DNA from: Pseudomonadota bacterium
GTDB lineage: Bacteria; Myxococcota; JACRCW01; JAFGSX01
Assembly: GCA_043821645.1 (NCBI GenBank)
Contig: JBDRCO010000087.1
Span: forward strand, 192,001 to 256,000
Length of the DNA: 64,000 nucleotides
Reading direction: 5' to 3'
A model generated the notes under the pieces. That model was given only the letters and a program-made list of their open reading frames with translations. It was not told the origin of the DNA and did not search any database. Positions within the stretch are counted from its first letter, which is position 1. Each line of letters begins with the position of its first letter. Below, piece after piece: positions 29,448 through 34,497 of this stretch. The translations under genes and the position numbers were made by a program.

Positions 29448-29522
29448 CGGGGTGTAGCTCAGTCTGGTTAGAGCGCATGGTTCGGGACCATGAGGCCGGA
29501 GGTTCGAATCCTCTCACCCCGA
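29448..29522 (+). tRNA. tRNA-Pro (anticodon CGG), 3' CCA not encoded
   Basis: CGGGGTG acceptor stem with CACCCCG, D-arm AGCTCAGTCTGGTTAGAGC, anticodon arm CATGG-TTCGGGA-CCATG, T-loop GGTTCGAATCC. Confidence 0.97.
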
Positions 29523-29850: not shown

Positions 29851-31635
29851 GTGAGCGCGACCCACATCGGCCCCTACCAGATCGTGCGTCCGCTGGCTCG
29901 TGGCGGCATGGGCGAGACCCTGATTGCCCGGGCGCCGGACGGCACCTTGGTGGTGCTCAAGCGTCTGCTCGAGCACCTGGCAGAGGATCTCGAGGCCGTG
30001 CGCTGCTTCCGCGAGGAGATCCGCATCGCGGGCCGTCTCGCGCACACCAACATCGTGCGCTTCATCGAGGTCATCGAGGACGCCGGGCAGCTGGTGCTGG
30101 TGCTCGAGTACGTCGACGGATGCTCGGCGCGGGACCTGGTGCTGGACGGACGCCGTCGCGGCGAGCCCATCCGTGTGGCCGAAGCCTGTGCCATCGTCGA
30201 AGGCGCGGCGCGCGGGCTGCACTTCGCGCATAGCCTGACCGACGACGCTGCCAATCCCATGGGTATGATCCATCGCGATGTCAGCCTGGCCAACCTCCTG
30301 ATCAGTCGCAGTGGCGAGGTCAAGGTCATCGACTTCGGCGTGGCCAAGGCCTGGGATGCCGAGGGGCGCACCGCCACCGGTATCGTCAAGGGCAAGGTCG
30401 GCTACATGTCGCCCGAGCACACGCGCTGCGAGCCTCTCGACGCACGCTCCGACGTGTTCTCGCTCGGTATCGTGCTGTGGGAACTGCTGGTCTGCGATCG
30501 CCTGTTCGTGGCCGATGGCCCGGTGGCGACGGCCTACCTGGTGCTCGAGTCCTCCATCGCCAAGCCTTCGGGGCGGCGGCCGGAGATCCCGGCGCGCATC
30601 GATGCGATCTGCATGCACGCCCTCGAGCGCGACCTCGAGAAACGCACCGGCAGCGCCCAGGAGCTGGCGCGCTCGCTGGCTCGGTGGCGCGAGGAGACCG
30701 ACGCCGAACTCGATCTCGGTGCGCTGGTCAGGCAGCGGTTTCCTGTGGGTCTTCCCGAGGCCAACGACGGTGCACCGACCCAGGTTGCGCGCGGGCGCGC
30801 CATCACCCACAGCAGCACCGATCTGGTCGGTTCCCGCGCGGTGGCGATGCCGCCGCCGCCGCCGGTTCCGGCCATGAGCCTGCCCATTGCGAACGAGCTG
30901 GACAACCCGGACCTGTCCCGCACCTTCTTCGATCAGCGAATCTCCTCGAGCATGCGCGGCGTGCGGCAGCGCAGCGCCGTGTGGCGGGTGATTCTGGCCG
31001 TGCTGGCCGTGGCCGTGATCGGGGCTGCCGTGTACGTGCAGTGGCTGGCGCCGCCACGGCGCGCTGGCCACGACGCCGCGGTGGCGGTGTTTTACTCGTA
31101 CCAGGACAGCACCGGAACCCAGGTCATCGTCGGCTCCCTGGCGCAGGTGCCACCCGAGCGTCGACCCTTTGCGCAACGCCTCGACCTCGGAGATGCGGCC
31201 TTGCACATCGAGCCTGGCGCCGGGCGAGACCCCGCAGAGATCAGGCGGGAACTCTCGAGGCTGTCCCGGAAACTCGGTGCCGGCTCGAGCTCGACCGCGG
31301 GCAGTGCGCGCGAGGTCCTGCTCGGTCTGGCGATACCGGTGGGTCTCATGCTGCTCCTGGCCGCCGTGCTGTTCGGGCTGGCATCGCGAGTCCGCGACGG
31401 CTTCGTGCGCTGGACCCTGCGGCTGCTGGTGTTGTTCGTGCTCGTGGTGGGGATGATAAGAAGCTTCAGCGACGGGATCCTGGGGCGTCCGGGTTTTCGT
31501 GCACTGCAGCGCGAGACCGCGTCCTTGCCCGTGGACAGGCTCGCCCCGGCCTTGCGTGAGGTGATACGACAGATGACGACCCGGCCGCCACCGGGTACGC
31601 TGGGTACGGTTCCGCCTGGTGTGGACCTTGACTAG
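29851..31635 (+). CDS. Membrane-anchored Ser/Thr protein kinase
   Basis: GTG start. ARGGMGE, VVLKR, HRDVSLAN, DFGVAK, YMSPE. Three TM-like segments in the C-terminal half. Confidence 0.9.
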   Translation: MSATHIGPYQIVRPLARGGMGETLIARAPDGTLVVLKRLLEHLAEDLEAVRCFREEIRIAGRLAHTNIVRFIEVIEDAGQLVLVLEYVDGCSARDLVLDGRRRGEPIRVAEACAIVEGAARGLHFAHSLTDDAANPMGMIHRDVSLANLLISRSGEVKVIDFGVAKAWDAEGRTATGIVKGKVGYMSPEHTRCEPLDARSDVFSLGIVLWELLVCDRLFVADGPVATAYLVLESSIAKPSGRRPEIPARIDAICMHALERDLEKRTGSAQELARSLARWREETDAELDLGALVRQRFPVGLPEANDGAPTQVARGRAITHSSTDLVGSRAVAMPPPPPVPAMSLPIANELDNPDLSRTFFDQRISSSMRGVRQRSAVWRVILAVLAVAVIGAAVYVQWLAPPRRAGHDAAVAVFYSYQDSTGTQVIVGSLAQVPPERRPFAQRLDLGDAALHIEPGAGRDPAEIRRELSRLSRKLGAGSSSTAGSAREVLLGLAIPVGLMLLLAAVLFGLASRVRDGFVRWTLRLLVLFVLVVGMIRSFSDGILGRPGFRALQRETASLPVDRLAPALREVIRQMTTRPPPGTLGTVPPGVDLD

Positions 31636-31737
31636 GTACGGTTGCGAGGTCCGGCGAAAGAGGGCGGGGGAACCGGCGGCTGCACGGGTGCGAGTGCGGC
31701 GCAACAGCCGCTCACCGTCGAGGATCGGAGGCCTGGC

Positions 31738-31989
31738 ATGCGTGTCCTGATGTGTTCGGTGGTGCTCGGGGTGGTACTGGCGACAGGTTGCAGCTTCCAG
31801 GCGCAGCAGTGCTGTGACTGCATGGCGACCAAGAGCACGGTGTTCGGCGAATGCATGAAGGACACCATGGACAGCTGCGTCGACGAGCTCTCCAAGTCGC
31901 CGCCCAACGTCGATGCCATCTCGCCCCTGTGCCGGGACGAGGAGAACTTCTGCCCGGATTCCTGTGCTGACGTGCTGTACAAGAAATGA
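31738..31989 (+). CDS. Small Cys-rich lipoprotein
   Basis: GGAGG RBS, MRVLMCSVVLGVVLATGC lipobox, CCDC...C...C...C..C...C. Confidence 0.65.
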   Translation: MRVLMCSVVLGVVLATGCSFQAQQCCDCMATKSTVFGECMKDTMDSCVDELSKSPPNVDAISPLCRDEENFCPDSCADVLYKK

Positions 31990-32034
31990 CCGCGTGGCCG
32001 CGGCCCGGCGCTCGGCCCGCCCAGGGAGCATGAC

Positions 32035-32316
32035 GTGGCAACCATCATCACCGAGGAATGCATCAACTGCGGCGCCTGCGAGACGGAGTGTCCAACCCAG
32101 GCCATCGCCGAGAGCACCGAGATCTACCTGGTGGACTCGGCACTGTGTTGCGAGTGCGTCGGCTACTTCGACGAGCTGGCCTGCGCTGCGGTGTGCCCCG
32201 TGGACTGCTGCGTGGTGGACACCAAGCACCCGGAGTCCAAGGAGCAGCTGCTGGCCAAGGCCCGTCAGGCGAGTCCAGAGCGCGAGTTTGGCCCGGACGC
32301 TCCGTCGCACATCTGA
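32035..32316 (+). CDS. YfhL-family 2x[4Fe-4S] ferredoxin
   Basis: CINCGACETECP and CCECVGYFDELACAAVCPVDC. Confidence 0.92.
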   Translation: MATIITEECINCGACETECPTQAIAESTEIYLVDSALCCECVGYFDELACAAVCPVDCCVVDTKHPESKEQLLAKARQASPEREFGPDAPSHI

Positions 32317-32610
32317 GCTCGCTGCCGCCGCCAGGTCTTTCTCATCTCGCTGCCAGATTTGCTGTCAACATGGTGCCACTCCAAGCAAGCGACCCGAGGG
32401 GCTGCTGCTGAGGGAAAACCGAGCTGATCGACAGGACAAAGAGACCACAGCGCGTGGCTAATTTGCCATAATCCTAATTATTTAATATAATTAGGTTAAT
32501 TTTCTAGCGACAGATAGATATGGTTACTTTGCCCCGGCGGCCGCAAATCCGCAAAGATCCTGCAGAAGAATATATAATGATTTCAATTCTATCGGCTCTA
32601 TTACCAATTC

Positions 32611-32626
32611 TGGCACGTACCCTGCT
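32611..32626 (+). promoter_or_regulatory. Sigma54 (-24/-12) promoter
   Basis: TGGCACG-TACC-CTGCT against consensus TGGCACG-N4-TTGCW. Preceded by a strongly AT-rich tract. Confidence 0.8.
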
Positions 32627-32636
32627 TAAGAAAGAC

Positions 32637-32789
32637 CCGTACACGGAAGCGCGGTTCAAACTGGACTACCCCCCCCGGTCCTACCGAACAAGCGACCCGT
32701 GACAGGGTGCAAGTCACCTTGGAAGGCGTCGTCGCCAGTTTCCGGTGCTCCCCCCCCACCGGCCTGACGCGACGCCTTCCGCTTTTTTT
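32637..32789 (+). ncRNA. Candidate ~150-nt small RNA with two C8 loops (Pxr-like architecture)
   Basis: Lies between the sigma54 promoter and an intrinsic terminator with no credible ORF. Hairpins GGAC-TACCCCCCCCG-GTCC, GTGAC..GTCAC and CCGGTG-CTCCCCCCC-CACCGG. Confidence 0.65.
32721..32789 (+). terminator. Intrinsic terminator-like long hairpin plus U7
   Basis: GGAAGGCGTCG (32721-32731) pairs with CGACGCCTTCC (32770-32780), followed by T7 (32783-32789). Confidence 0.75.
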
Positions 32790-32818
32790 GGGCTCAGTTT
32801 CCTAGCAGCTTGGTTTTC

Positions 32819-33424
32819 TTATCCCGCATCGCCCGGACGCGGGCAGCGATGAGTCTGCAGATTGCAGGTTCGTCCCTCGCAGTGCGAGCTATCGAAGCAC
32901 TCGACGCAGAGCAGCTGAGGTGAGCAGTAGGGCTGCGCCTCGGGGCAGTGGCCGCACAGCCCTGCATCCTCCGCCGCGCGATCGTCGCCGACGCTGCGAT
33001 CGGGCGGTACCGCCGCATCCATGTCCCTGTCCCCGGCCTCGTCGCAGGTCGGCAGGTCTGCCACCACGTGATCTGCACGCTGCGCGTCGCTCTGTGTCGC
33101 AGCGTCGGTAAGCTGGGTGTCCGGCGAAGAGCGGTCAGGTGACGAGCTGTCCACCCCGCTCGCGTGGTCCGTGCCTCCGTTGACATCGGGTCGCGCGGTA
33201 TCGGGGCGGGGCCCGTCCACGGTGCTGCTGTCCGGGAGCGAGACATCGGCCGCACGGGCGTCGCGGGTCAGACATAGACCCGTGGCGAGGTCGCAGCTGG
33301 AGTAGCCGGGGCAGTCCAGGTCGCTGCCACAGGCGTTGGCCGCCGGTGTTGCCGGACATCCGAGTTGGATCATGATGCCCCACGCGGCGAAGGGGAGGAT
33401 CCGACGAAGGTGCCATGGTGCCAC
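32819..33424 (-). CDS. Cys-rich lipoprotein with Asp/Ser-rich linker
   Basis: Lipobox-like QLGC, CGSDLDC..C..GLC, D-rich spacer, C-terminal CVECFDSSHC. Start uncertain. Confidence 0.55.
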   Translation of the reverse strand: MAPWHLRRILPFAAWGIMIQLGCPATPAANACGSDLDCPGYSSCDLATGLCLTRDARAADVSLPDSSTVDGPRPDTARPDVNGGTDHASGVDSSSPDRSSPDTQLTDAATQSDAQRADHVVADLPTCDEAGDRDMDAAVPPDRSVGDDRAAEDAGLCGHCPEAQPYCSPQLLCVECFDSSHCEGRTCNLQTHRCPRPGDAG

Positions 33425-33558
33425 GGTGCGCTCCTGACAAAAAAGCAGCCACGCAGGAAGTCTACCAGCCGCGCGCCAGCTGCACAGGTCTCGCCATTGC
33501 CGCATGGCGTGAATCGCGATAGGTCAGGATTCTCACGCCCTGAGCCGCGAGGTCTGAC

Positions 33559-34497
33559 ATGAAGGCGCACATCCTGCTGATCGAGGACAGCGCAAGCCAG
33601 GCCGAGCACACGCTCAAGTTGCTGGCGGACATCGGCTATGACACGACCTGGGCTCGGGGTGGGCTCGAGGGCCTGAAGATGGCCCAGACCGAGAGGCCCG
33701 ATCTGATCTTGCTCGATGTGGTGATGGAGGACATGGACGGCTACGCCGTGTGCCGCTGGCTCAAGATGCAAGAAGCGACCCGTGATACCCCGGTCATCAT
33801 GCTGACTGTTCGGGATGAGGTGGCGTCTCGTGTCGAGGGCCTGAATGTCGGCGCCGACGACTACCTGCCCAAGCCCTTCGATGCGCGCGAGCTCGAGGCG
33901 CGCATCTTTGCCGCGCTGCGTGCCAAGGGCCATCTCGACGAGCTCAAGCGGCGTGCCGACGATCTCGAGGGTTTGCTTCACCGGGTCGAGTCCATGGCCA
34001 TCACGGATGCCCTCACCGGTCTGTACAACAGGCGCCGCTTCAGTGATGTGCTGCGGCGAGAGGTGGCCACCGCCCGGCGCTACAAGAACCCCCTGAGCTG
34101 CATGCTCATCGACATCGATCACTTCAAGCGGGTCAACGACGCCCATGGCCACGACGCCGGAGACAAGGTCCTCAAGGGCTTCTCGACCCTGCTGCTATCC
34201 AACGTGCGCGAGGTCGATGTGCCCGTGCGTTACGGTGGCGAGGAGTTTGCCGTCCTGATGCCGCAGACCAGCAAGAGCGGTGCCCTGATCGTGGCGGAGC
34301 GCATCCGCAATCGTACGCGCGAACACAGCTTCGACGCAGGTGTGGCCCAGGTCTCCTTCTCGCTGAGCATAGGCATCGCGGATGTCGACGACATGCGCAG
34401 TGACAACGAGGAGGAGCTGGTGCTGGCCTCGGACTCTGCGCTGTACCAGGCCAAGATCCAGGGACGAGACCGCGTGCACTTGTATGTCGCCGGCTGA
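33559..34497 (+). CDS. Response-regulator diguanylate cyclase (REC-GGDEF)
   Basis: IED/LLD(P)/KP receiver motifs, DALTGLYNRR, DIDHFKRVND, RxxD I-site (REVD), GGEEF. Confidence 0.95.
   Translation: MKAHILLIEDSASQAEHTLKLLADIGYDTTWARGGLEGLKMAQTERPDLILLDVVMEDMDGYAVCRWLKMQEATRDTPVIMLTVRDEVASRVEGLNVGADDYLPKPFDARELEARIFAALRAKGHLDELKRRADDLEGLLHRVESMAITDALTGLYNRRRFSDVLRREVATARRYKNPLSCMLIDIDHFKRVNDAHGHDAGDKVLKGFSTLLLSNVREVDVPVRYGGEEFAVLMPQTSKSGALIVAERIRNRTREHSFDAGVAQVSFSLSIGIADVDDMRSDNEEELVLASDSALYQAKIQGRDRVHLYVAG

Follow-up and report, generated by a model that had tools for sequence, protein, structure and literature searches.

Does a gene of the Pxr kind exist outside the range in which Pxr has been published? 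The question is raised by an intergenic locus on the forward strand of contig C87 of an uncultured Myxococcota genome. The window is the whole stretch of DNA that was analysed, 64,000 nt in length (C87:192001-256000). Within it a predicted small RNA (sRNA) gene, here called the window sRNA, lies between a ferredoxin gene and a convergent open reading frame (ORF). Pxr is a textbook case of an sRNA controlling multicellular transition and of a "recently evolved" bacterial sRNA, and its targets are only now being mapped. It controls the development of fruiting bodies, which it blocks for as long as nutrients last. The window element most likely encodes a small regulatory RNA, as a conserved, unannotated RNA gene. 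The reading preferred here, given a probability of roughly 0.6, is that it encodes a trans-acting sRNA of the Pxr type, dependent on sigma-54 and an activator, independent of Hfq and outside the published range of Pxr. As part of that reading the window sRNA would belong to a family with members in much of the phylum, and Pxr, its Myxococcaceae branch, would be the only part described so far.

Anatomy and conservation of the predicted sRNA gene

The original prediction, made from the sequence alone, had placed a sigma-54 promoter, two C8 runs, an 11-bp stem and a T7 tract in this intergenic region, and all were found in place (Table 1). It had also drawn three hairpins with the C runs in loops. 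Folding of 32637-32792 agreed, giving three hairpins, and each C run fell in a 9-nt apical loop. The free energy was -64.5 kcal/mol compared to -51.6 ± 3.8 kcal/mol for dinucleotide shuffles (n = 200, z -3.4, 0/200 as good). The terminator hairpin (stem-loop 3, SL3) was very stable by itself (-37.5 kcal/mol, z -6.6, 0/200 shuffles as good). In the contig of the best DNA run position 32782 is T instead of C, making the terminator tract T8 and not T7.

Table 1. Features of the window sRNA locus, in window positions
Feature	Position	Strand	Basis or remark
4Fe-4S ferredoxin gene, 93 amino acids (aa), upstream flank	32035-32316	+	Pfam Fer4
AT-rich upstream region, presumed activator-binding/DNA-bending	32440-32610	.	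function inferred from sequence
Inverted repeat TGGC-N6-GCCA	32455-32468		
Sigma-70-like match TTGCCA-17-TATAAT	32463-32491	+	11/12 positions
Inverted repeat CCTAATTAT-N5-ATAATTAGG	32473-32495		perfect, 9 bp
Motif AATGATTTCAAT	32576-32587		
Sigma-54 (-24/-12) promoter TGGCACG-TACC-CTGCT	32611-32626	+	sequence match, activity predicted
Predicted sRNA, ~153 nt	32637-32789	+	5' end inferred from promoter geometry, 3' end from terminator
Extended stem-loop 1 (SL1)	32642-32701	+	fold and conservation
5' block GGAAGCGCGG	32645-32654	+	resembles Pxr start
SL1 apical stem GGACU/GGUCC	32663-32667 pairs 32677-32681	+	
SL1 9-nt loop ACCCCCCCC	32668-32676	+	
First C8 run	32669-32676	+	exactly eight C
SL2, short hairpin AGGGUG-CAAGU-CACCUU	32704-32720	+	fold
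SL3, long terminator hairpin	32721-32780	+	fold, conservation of shape
SL3 11-bp G+C-rich stem, GGAAGGCGTCG with CGACGCCTTCC	32721-32731 pairs 32770-32780		
SL3 apex CCGGUG/CACCGG, second C-rich 9-nt loop CUCCCCCCC	32748-32756	+	
Second C8 run	32750-32757	+	exactly eight C
U7 tract of intrinsic terminator	32783-32789	+	
Convergent downstream ORF, 228 aa, Cys-rich	32819-33505	-	no Pfam family; stop 30 nt from U tract

The promoter is the sole match in the window to the degenerate sigma-54 pattern. One match was observed compared to 0.23 expected, and at least one occurred in 19 of 100 shuffles. C8 was observed six times in the window with 5.7 expected. The promoter pattern and the C8 runs, each taken singly, are at chance level in the window. 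The two were then combined in the pattern TGGCAYR-N4-MTGCW-N25-55-C7, with the same pattern read backwards as the control. Matches were found in 128 of 401 Myxococcota genomes and the backwards control gave one match. The combination is therefore significant, and relatives keep it as well.

The locus had been described as unannotated, and the Rfam 15 scan of the window at gathering thresholds gave no match on the window sRNA. The only match in the window at these thresholds was a tRNA gene at 29448-29522 (69.6 bits). When all 4227 Rfam families were scanned on 32300-32900 at E≤10 nothing credible was found, including no Pxr and no 6C RNA.

The source genome (7.07 Mb, 140 contigs, 94.7% complete) was compared to G001 (a different genus of its family), G003 (its class but a different family) and G061 (a further family). 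A BLAST-level search of 41 genomes found the element in the source genome and G001 only. The order in G001 is a ferredoxin gene, as in the window, an AT-rich spacer, a TGGCAT-N5-ATGCA promoter, GGACU-C9-GGUCC, a second hairpin and T7. The apex of the second hairpin, GGUGCU-C8-ACC, is identical to that of the window. RNAalifold on the two sequences gave 37 consensus pairs, six of them with compensatory changes. The model R1, built from the window and G001 only, scored the window sRNA at 174 bits. Across 151 genomes of the phylum it matched four, namely the source genome (two sites), G001, G003 (E 5e-9) and G061 (E 0.005). The G003 promoter is TGGCACG-TCGC-CTGCT. Both C loops are kept in G003, where the SL3 stem retains its shape although the sequence is entirely different. 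G061, which is of lower GC content, has one C7 loop and one C8 loop. A metagenome pattern scan gave four loci, of which contig L049, a close relative of G001, was real and three were low-complexity. A 17-mer contig scan gave 41 loci, and the promoter plus the second C run were present in one only.

A like promoter was found at the same place in G001, L049, G003, G061 and a second copy in the source genome, and T7 or T8 is retained in G001, L049, G003 and G061. G001, G003, the second copy and four more G003 copies all carry the apical hairpin GGACU-(N)C8-GGUCC unchanged. The loop was 9 nt in every family member folded. In a model-fitted alignment of 15 matches 95.2% of cells paired, compared to 69.9% when shuffled (0/500 as high) and 33-49% when slid; these figures lean in favour of pairing, as the alignment was fitted to the structure and includes related sequences. 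Both sides had changed in 28 of 37 pairs, with 15/17 in helix 5 (SL3). SL2 was the least conserved helix (75% of cells paired). Independent folds of G003 and G061 are free of the bias of the fitted alignment. MAFFT/RNAalifold on the four long forms misregistered SL3 of G003 so that many pairs looked broken, and the model-based alignment was used instead. The BLASTN and covariation analysis proposed with the original prediction found relatives that keep the promoter, C loops and terminator, with stems that covary. A U6-7 tract also comes after the first hairpin in G001 and L049, so these two may make both a short and a long RNA.

The second copy in the source genome is a one-hairpin form on the minus strand (C31:56807-56687, loci L048 and L095). 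Its promoter is TGGCATG-GATA-CTGCT, a long stem carries its GGACU-C9-GGUCC hairpin, and its terminator is small and separate. A membrane-protein gene begins ~60 nt past this terminator. G003 has five copies, one long two-loop form and four short one-hairpin forms, each with its own promoter and U tract. In the short forms the U tract comes after the C-loop hairpin itself. Three of them are in tandem ~400 bp apart (C497:37763-38619 = L064:953-1850). Loci L054, L061 and L064 coincide with the G003 sites and are not independent evidence. Tandem arrays of three or four Pxr-type copies were seen in three genomes of f11, the Pxr family (G211, G346 and G294), and tandem pxr arrays have reportedly been published for Cystobacter. 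An internal duplication giving rise to the two modules of the window sRNA was not significant (z 1.6, 80/1000 shuffles as high).

Relation to Pxr and spread of the design

The original prediction had proposed a Pxr-like sRNA, either a divergent relative of Pxr or a new anti-Shine-Dalgarno family. Sequence comparison and layout indicate that the window sRNA is Pxr-like and probably a distant relative of Pxr. The pxr loci were fetched with a published primer (PMC5684412, Table 1). The Myxococcus xanthus pxr promoter, TGGCACG-GCGA-CTGCT, has the same core as that of the window. The distance from promoter start to C run is 58 nt in the window and 59 nt in M. xanthus pxr, where the run is C7. The loop of Pxr SL1 is UUCCCCCCCA. 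Common to both RNAs are GAAGCGnGG near the 5' end and GUCACCUUG at SL2. A global alignment of the window sRNA with M. xanthus Pxr, made with the promoter left out, was collinear (z 3.56, 2/1000 shuffles as high). When R1, which contains no Pxr sequence, was run on 12 Pxr loci, its best match fell exactly on pxr in all of them (19-24 bits, E 1e-4 to 2e-3 in 28.6 kb). A further model, R2, was built from 11 sequences of a third group in other families (alignment A5, 14/24 pairs covarying) and contains neither Pxr nor the window. R2 matched pxr at 19-24 bits (24.2) and the SL3 module of the window at 23.3 bits, and also G001, G003, G061 and others.

The available sections of PMC5684412 report a predicted sigma-54 promoter for pxr and the lack of hfq in myxobacteria. 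They also report that the SL1 loop of Pxr is essential, that a C-to-A change in the loop inactivates Pxr, and that Pxr needs a conserved 8-bp core of the SL3 stem to accumulate. The SL3 stem of the window (GGAAGGCGUCG...), compared as a whole, differs in sequence from that of M. xanthus. In PMC5568312 homologues of Pxr were expressed from the M. xanthus pxr promoter in a pxr deletion background. The origin of pxr is placed within the Cystobacterineae in the parts of PMC5568312, PMC11928866 and PMC8538405 consulted. No report of such sRNAs outside Pxr in the phylum was found in the literature; the primary origin paper, Chen et al. 2014, was not covered.

Matches to the promoter plus C-run pattern were spread over many families. 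The Pxr family f11 accounted for 94 of its 172 genomes, followed by f30 (12/17), f22 (6/7), f26 (4/9), f4 (2/18), f1 (1/1) and f2 (1/2), with single genomes in f6, f14, f15, f18 and others. Outside f11 the pattern was present in 33/228 genomes plus the source genome. One unpublished genome, G195 (f11), is included in these tallies and no result rests on it. By comparison, the Rfam Pxr model RF01812 (gathering threshold 80 bits; positive control M. xanthus locus L072, 129.2 bits) matched only f11 (20/21) plus one f22 genome among the 151 genomes. The C run was in a hairpin loop in 28 of 30 fetched loci. In three f30 genomes, G179, G259 and G340 (loci L105, L109 and L098), a gene for a pyridoxal-phosphate (PLP)-dependent enzyme of Cys/Met metabolism, judged by eye from its translation, lies ~40 nt past the terminator.

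A C8 scan of all species genomes gave at least 120 loci, and in at least 52 of these the C run sits in a hairpin loop with a T run after it. Among the matches listed, 80 loci carried titles and 34 passed the loop and T-run test, and 29 of these 34 were titled as Myxococcota-type or "Deltaproteobacteria". Those passing include Sorangium cellulosum So ce56 (L186), other Sorangium, Polyangiaceae, Labilithrix luteola and Byssovorax. The other five were from Ectothiorhodospiraceae (L162, L168), Pseudomonadota (L137), Desulfovibrionaceae (L182) and Latescibacteria (L212). Loci outside Myxococcota may be independent inventions of the same design. Two Sphingomonas loci (L157, L207) have the loop and no T run.

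Upstream region, activators and proposed mechanism

The 230 nt upstream together with the 16-nt promoter have a GC content of 0.46 compared to 0.672 for the genome. GC is low at the corresponding stretches of the second copy (0.39), G001 (0.45) and G061 (0.39) as well. In the window and in L061 the motif AATGATTTCAAT precedes the promoter by ~35-45 nt, and its reverse complement occurs in L105; it may be a site for a bending protein. The sigma-70-like match is probably a by-product of AT-rich composition, and no such site was found in the equivalent region of G001.

The source genome encodes rpoN and has 45 matches to PF00158, the AAA+ domain of enhancer-binding proteins. The original prediction had noted no sigma-54 activator in the window, and indeed none of the 45 matches falls there; the nearest on contig C87 is at 298643-299146. 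An activator gene is located 4 kb from the second copy on C31, with opposite-strand genes between. In f11 the activator gene pxrR (NtrC-like, nla19) is co-directional with the sRNA gene and upstream of it. An NtrC-type activator gene is divergent and next to the sRNA promoter in f4 (L047, L091, L092), f14 (L096) and f6 (L097). These divergent genes are natural candidates for the cognate activator, and their products are 42-46% identical to the PxrR fragment. No activator gene was present within 1.5 kb at the loci of f1, f2, f30 and f34, and no PxrR homologue within 1.5 kb of the sRNA loci in the source genome, G001 and G003. Hfq was not found in the source genome, which is 94.7% complete.

Under the preferred reading, an enhancer-binding protein bound in the AT-rich upstream region would switch the promoter on and sigma-54 RNA polymerase would start near 32637. 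Transcription would stop at SL3 and the U7 tract, giving an RNA of ~153 nt. Folding and conservation show the anatomy of the predicted RNA, which displays two near-pure-C 9-nt loops, one on SL1, at the position of the essential loop of Pxr, and one at the apex of the terminator hairpin. The C loops would serve as seeds, pairing without Hfq with G-rich stretches at or near the ribosome-binding sites of several mRNAs, and the pairing would change translation or stability of these mRNAs. Because of the analogy with Pxr and 6C RNA, pairing with G-rich sites near ribosome-binding sites (an anti-Shine-Dalgarno mode) is probably how the C loops work. Proximity ligation places Pxr near the Shine-Dalgarno (SD) sequence of several mRNAs, according to the portion of bioRxiv 10.1101/2025.09.11.675593 consulted.

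Targets were sought in the source genome. GGAGG was enriched in the SD window of 2400 ORFs with near-unambiguous starts (134 compared to 25-36 in control windows). The few genes with at least six G before such a start include C101:118716 (SspB-like, Pfam SspB), and C51:179631, a 284-aa ORF, also has at least six G before its start and resembles an anti-sigma factor by eye only. These two could, speculatively, be targets of the C loops. A PAS histidine kinase (C53:18857) was rejected as a conserved target, as G001-G003 gave only paralogue-level matches (28-35% identity).

Several results weigh against the preferred reading. The longer G runs are not concentrated at start sites: runs of at least seven G occurred just before 56 of 487 long ORFs and C runs before 57 of 487, with no enrichment, and in the SD window GGGGG was only mildly enriched (41 compared to 24-27 in control windows) and GGGGGG was not (4 compared to 5-6). 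The regulon is therefore small if the seed needs at least six G, or the sites are not at the SD. No activator gene adjoins the window sRNA, and no clear PxrR orthologue was found in the source genome, where the best matches were all 41-48% identical. The apical part of SL1 folded weakly by itself (-5.1 kcal/mol, z -0.4, 61/200 shuffles as good). The window sRNA resembles Pxr in sequence only modestly, and its relative G001 does not share the resemblance at a significant level. R1 and R2 cross-match weakly (E 1e-4 to 4e-3 in 29-40 kb), and a C-loop hairpin plus terminator may account for most of that signal. For 31500-34000 no RNA run is on record, and contigs from two metatranscriptome runs, belonging to the study of the best DNA run, leave 32400-32800 uncovered. 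Both transcript searches are uninformative either way; the metatranscriptome contig query was long, so that a small RNA could be hidden.

Alternatives, meaning and comparison with known systems

The same design could have arisen twice, with the window sRNA a real sigma-54-dependent C-loop sRNA of independent origin and only an analogue of Pxr. A design this simple may be invented repeatedly, and this explanation is held to be unlikely, though it carries real weight. The Infernal search proposed with the original prediction found no Pxr: RF01812 gave no match at E≤10 on the window or 17 related loci, and none at E≤0.01 on the source genome. The window sRNA is therefore not a Pxr member as Rfam defines the family. 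Alignment of G001 with Pxr (z 1.0, 166/1000 shuffles as high) and of the window sRNA with the third-group member G120 (z 0.65) was not significant, the two modules of the window sRNA are not significantly alike, and the design also occurs at the five loci outside the phylum. All but the last two of these also count against the preferred reading. Set against them are the collinear alignment with Pxr, in which the shared blocks stand at the same distance from the promoter, the models from three separate groups, which find each other's genes at promoter-defined sites, and the concentration of passing loci in one phylum (29/34 among the matches listed). At the other extreme there may be no RNA gene at all, only a chance sigma-54-like match before the ferredoxin terminator, or a small protein. 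The promoter pattern and C8 are each at chance level, the stretch from the ferredoxin stop to SL3 gave no plus-strand terminator, which makes SL3 a possible end of the ferredoxin transcript as well, and two small ORFs exist. The first, of 60 aa (32520-32702), has no counterpart in G001, as expected from the original claim of no credible ORF in the stretch; the second, of 35 aa, is opened by a GTG at 32745 in the SL3 apical stem and runs into the 3' end of the convergent gene (32745-32852). Neither is conserved, and since the SL1 C run changes from C8 in the window to C9 in G001, G003 and the second copy, the reading frame is shifted across it. With the promoter kept in five further loci and before every sibling copy, 128 genomes matched compared to one in the control, and stems that covary, this explanation is very improbable.

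Two further explanations accept the RNA and give it another role, and each is regarded as improbable. The element could be the cis-acting leader or attenuator, or its descendant, of a sigma-54-dependent gene for a small Cys-rich lipoprotein, with SL3 and the U7 tract as a regulated terminator that sequesters the start region; the window, having lost the downstream gene, would then hold a relic or a leader turned sRNA. Such a gene follows the long-form sRNA in G001 (L002:1527-1820), L049 (minus strand) and G003 (L046:1653-1973), and the G001 and G003 lipoproteins are homologous (48% identity over 48 aa, E 2e-13). In all three the ORF continues from in or just after SL3 across the U tract; a signal-peptide-like stretch overlaps the tract and the Cys-rich domain comes after. 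The peptide at the U tract is ..SSIFLVLALSAC in G001, with a good lipobox, ..SSIFFIFALTAC in L049, in the same frame with conservative changes, and ..LRFFPLLIALLVTTPLAC in G003. No canonical start codon was found between U tract and lipobox in the three. A GTG in the SL3 apex opens the lipoprotein frame in G001 and L049, and the window has a GTG in the same stem. This arrangement fits a leader and a free-standing sRNA equally well and so also tells against the preferred reading. However, G001 and G003 use different frames when counted from the C run, and SL3 itself is thus not kept as a coding sequence. The window has no lipoprotein gene on the plus strand after the sRNA, yet its promoter, loops and terminator are intact, which argues for independent function. 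In the relatives a leader or attenuator role is still a serious competitor. Other members precede unrelated genes, for the PLP enzyme in f30, a membrane protein after the second copy, pxrA in Myxococcus and the next sRNA promoter after a G003 tandem copy. The convergent ORF of the window was considered as a flipped orthologue of the G001 lipoprotein gene and was not supported (E 0.38); the best tblastn match to that lipoprotein in the source genome is weak and elsewhere (C139, E 3e-4). Beyond the convergent ORF is a response-regulator/GGDEF gene. Alternatively, the poly-C loops could bind an RNA-binding protein (e.g., of the KH domain type), with the RNA titrating or recruiting it as a sponge. 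The near-pure-C 9-nt loops keep their size and composition across distant members while the stems change freely, start sites show no excess of G runs that could pair with C8, and two identical loops per RNA in multi-copy genes would suit titration. The SD-proximal contacts of Pxr (bioRxiv 10.1101/2025.09.11.675593) and the pairing of 6C RNA through its C loops (PMC6486639), as given in the parts of these sources consulted, speak against it.

What is new here is an RNA of the Pxr kind with a doubled C loop, outside the published taxonomic range of Pxr and within a large overlooked family. The gene lies in a separate uncultured class of Myxococcota, and dozens of unannotated genes have the same design, some of them in cultured Sorangium and Labilithrix. 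A broader reading is put forward tentatively, at somewhat less than even odds. Pxr would be one branch of an old family of sigma-54-dependent, Hfq-independent C-loop sRNAs extending over much of the phylum, and not a recent invention of the fruiting Myxococcaceae. The ancestral job would be other than gating fruiting, the seed loop would have been doubled in this lineage, and the terminator hairpin might double as a lipoprotein attenuator or start-site mask. Candidate members, on the same tentative footing, are in uncultured groundwater lineages, the present one among them, Sorangium, Labilithrix and other Polyangiaceae. If the RNAs are related, the published origin of Pxr needs revision, the conserved C loop is a phylum-wide handle on targets and activator, and a sizeable family could be added to Rfam and to genome annotation. 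If they are unrelated, the design was invented repeatedly, which is informative on sRNA action in high-GC bacteria without Hfq.

The window sRNA and Pxr are found in the same phylum. Both have the sigma-54 core TGGCACG-N4-CTGCT, with the C run at a similar spacing from the promoter, and a layout of three stem-loops in which SL1 bears a C-rich apical loop and SL3 is the terminator. Multi-copy or tandem paralogues in some genomes and a host without Hfq are also common to both, as far as the excerpts of PMC5684412 and PMC5568312 go. In contrast, the window sRNA is ~153 nt and Pxr 109 nt, the SL1 run is C8 and not C7, and the terminator hairpin carries a second C8 loop where Pxr has a short non-C loop. 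The window sRNA adjoins neither a pxrR-type activator gene nor pxrA, and its host is an uncultured member of another class with no known fruiting.

6C RNA is found in Actinobacteria (Mycobacterium, Streptomyces and Corynebacterium), and to our knowledge it is not known to depend on sigma-54. GlmY, CrcZ and NrsZ are further sRNAs dependent on sigma-54 and an activator. The likeness of 6C RNA to the window sRNA is one of design only, with two hairpins per sRNA, at least six C in each loop and a high-GC host. It belongs to another phylum, has no sequence similarity to the window sRNA and gave no model match at E≤10 on 32300-32900. In the part of PMC6486639 consulted 6C RNA binds mRNAs through C-rich loops without chaperones, and it is an analogue in working mode and not a relative. 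The Vibrio Qrr sRNAs use Hfq and a single-stranded seed, whereas the seeds of the window sRNA would be in loops and no Hfq was found; no Rfam or sequence match linked the window sRNA to Qrr-type sRNAs. Qrr1-5 resemble it in that a genome holds several copies, all with a sigma-54 promoter of their own and a common seed, here the C loop (10.1101/2021.07.01.450815, in the part consulted). The multi-copy feature was found here, with two copies in the source genome and five in G003.

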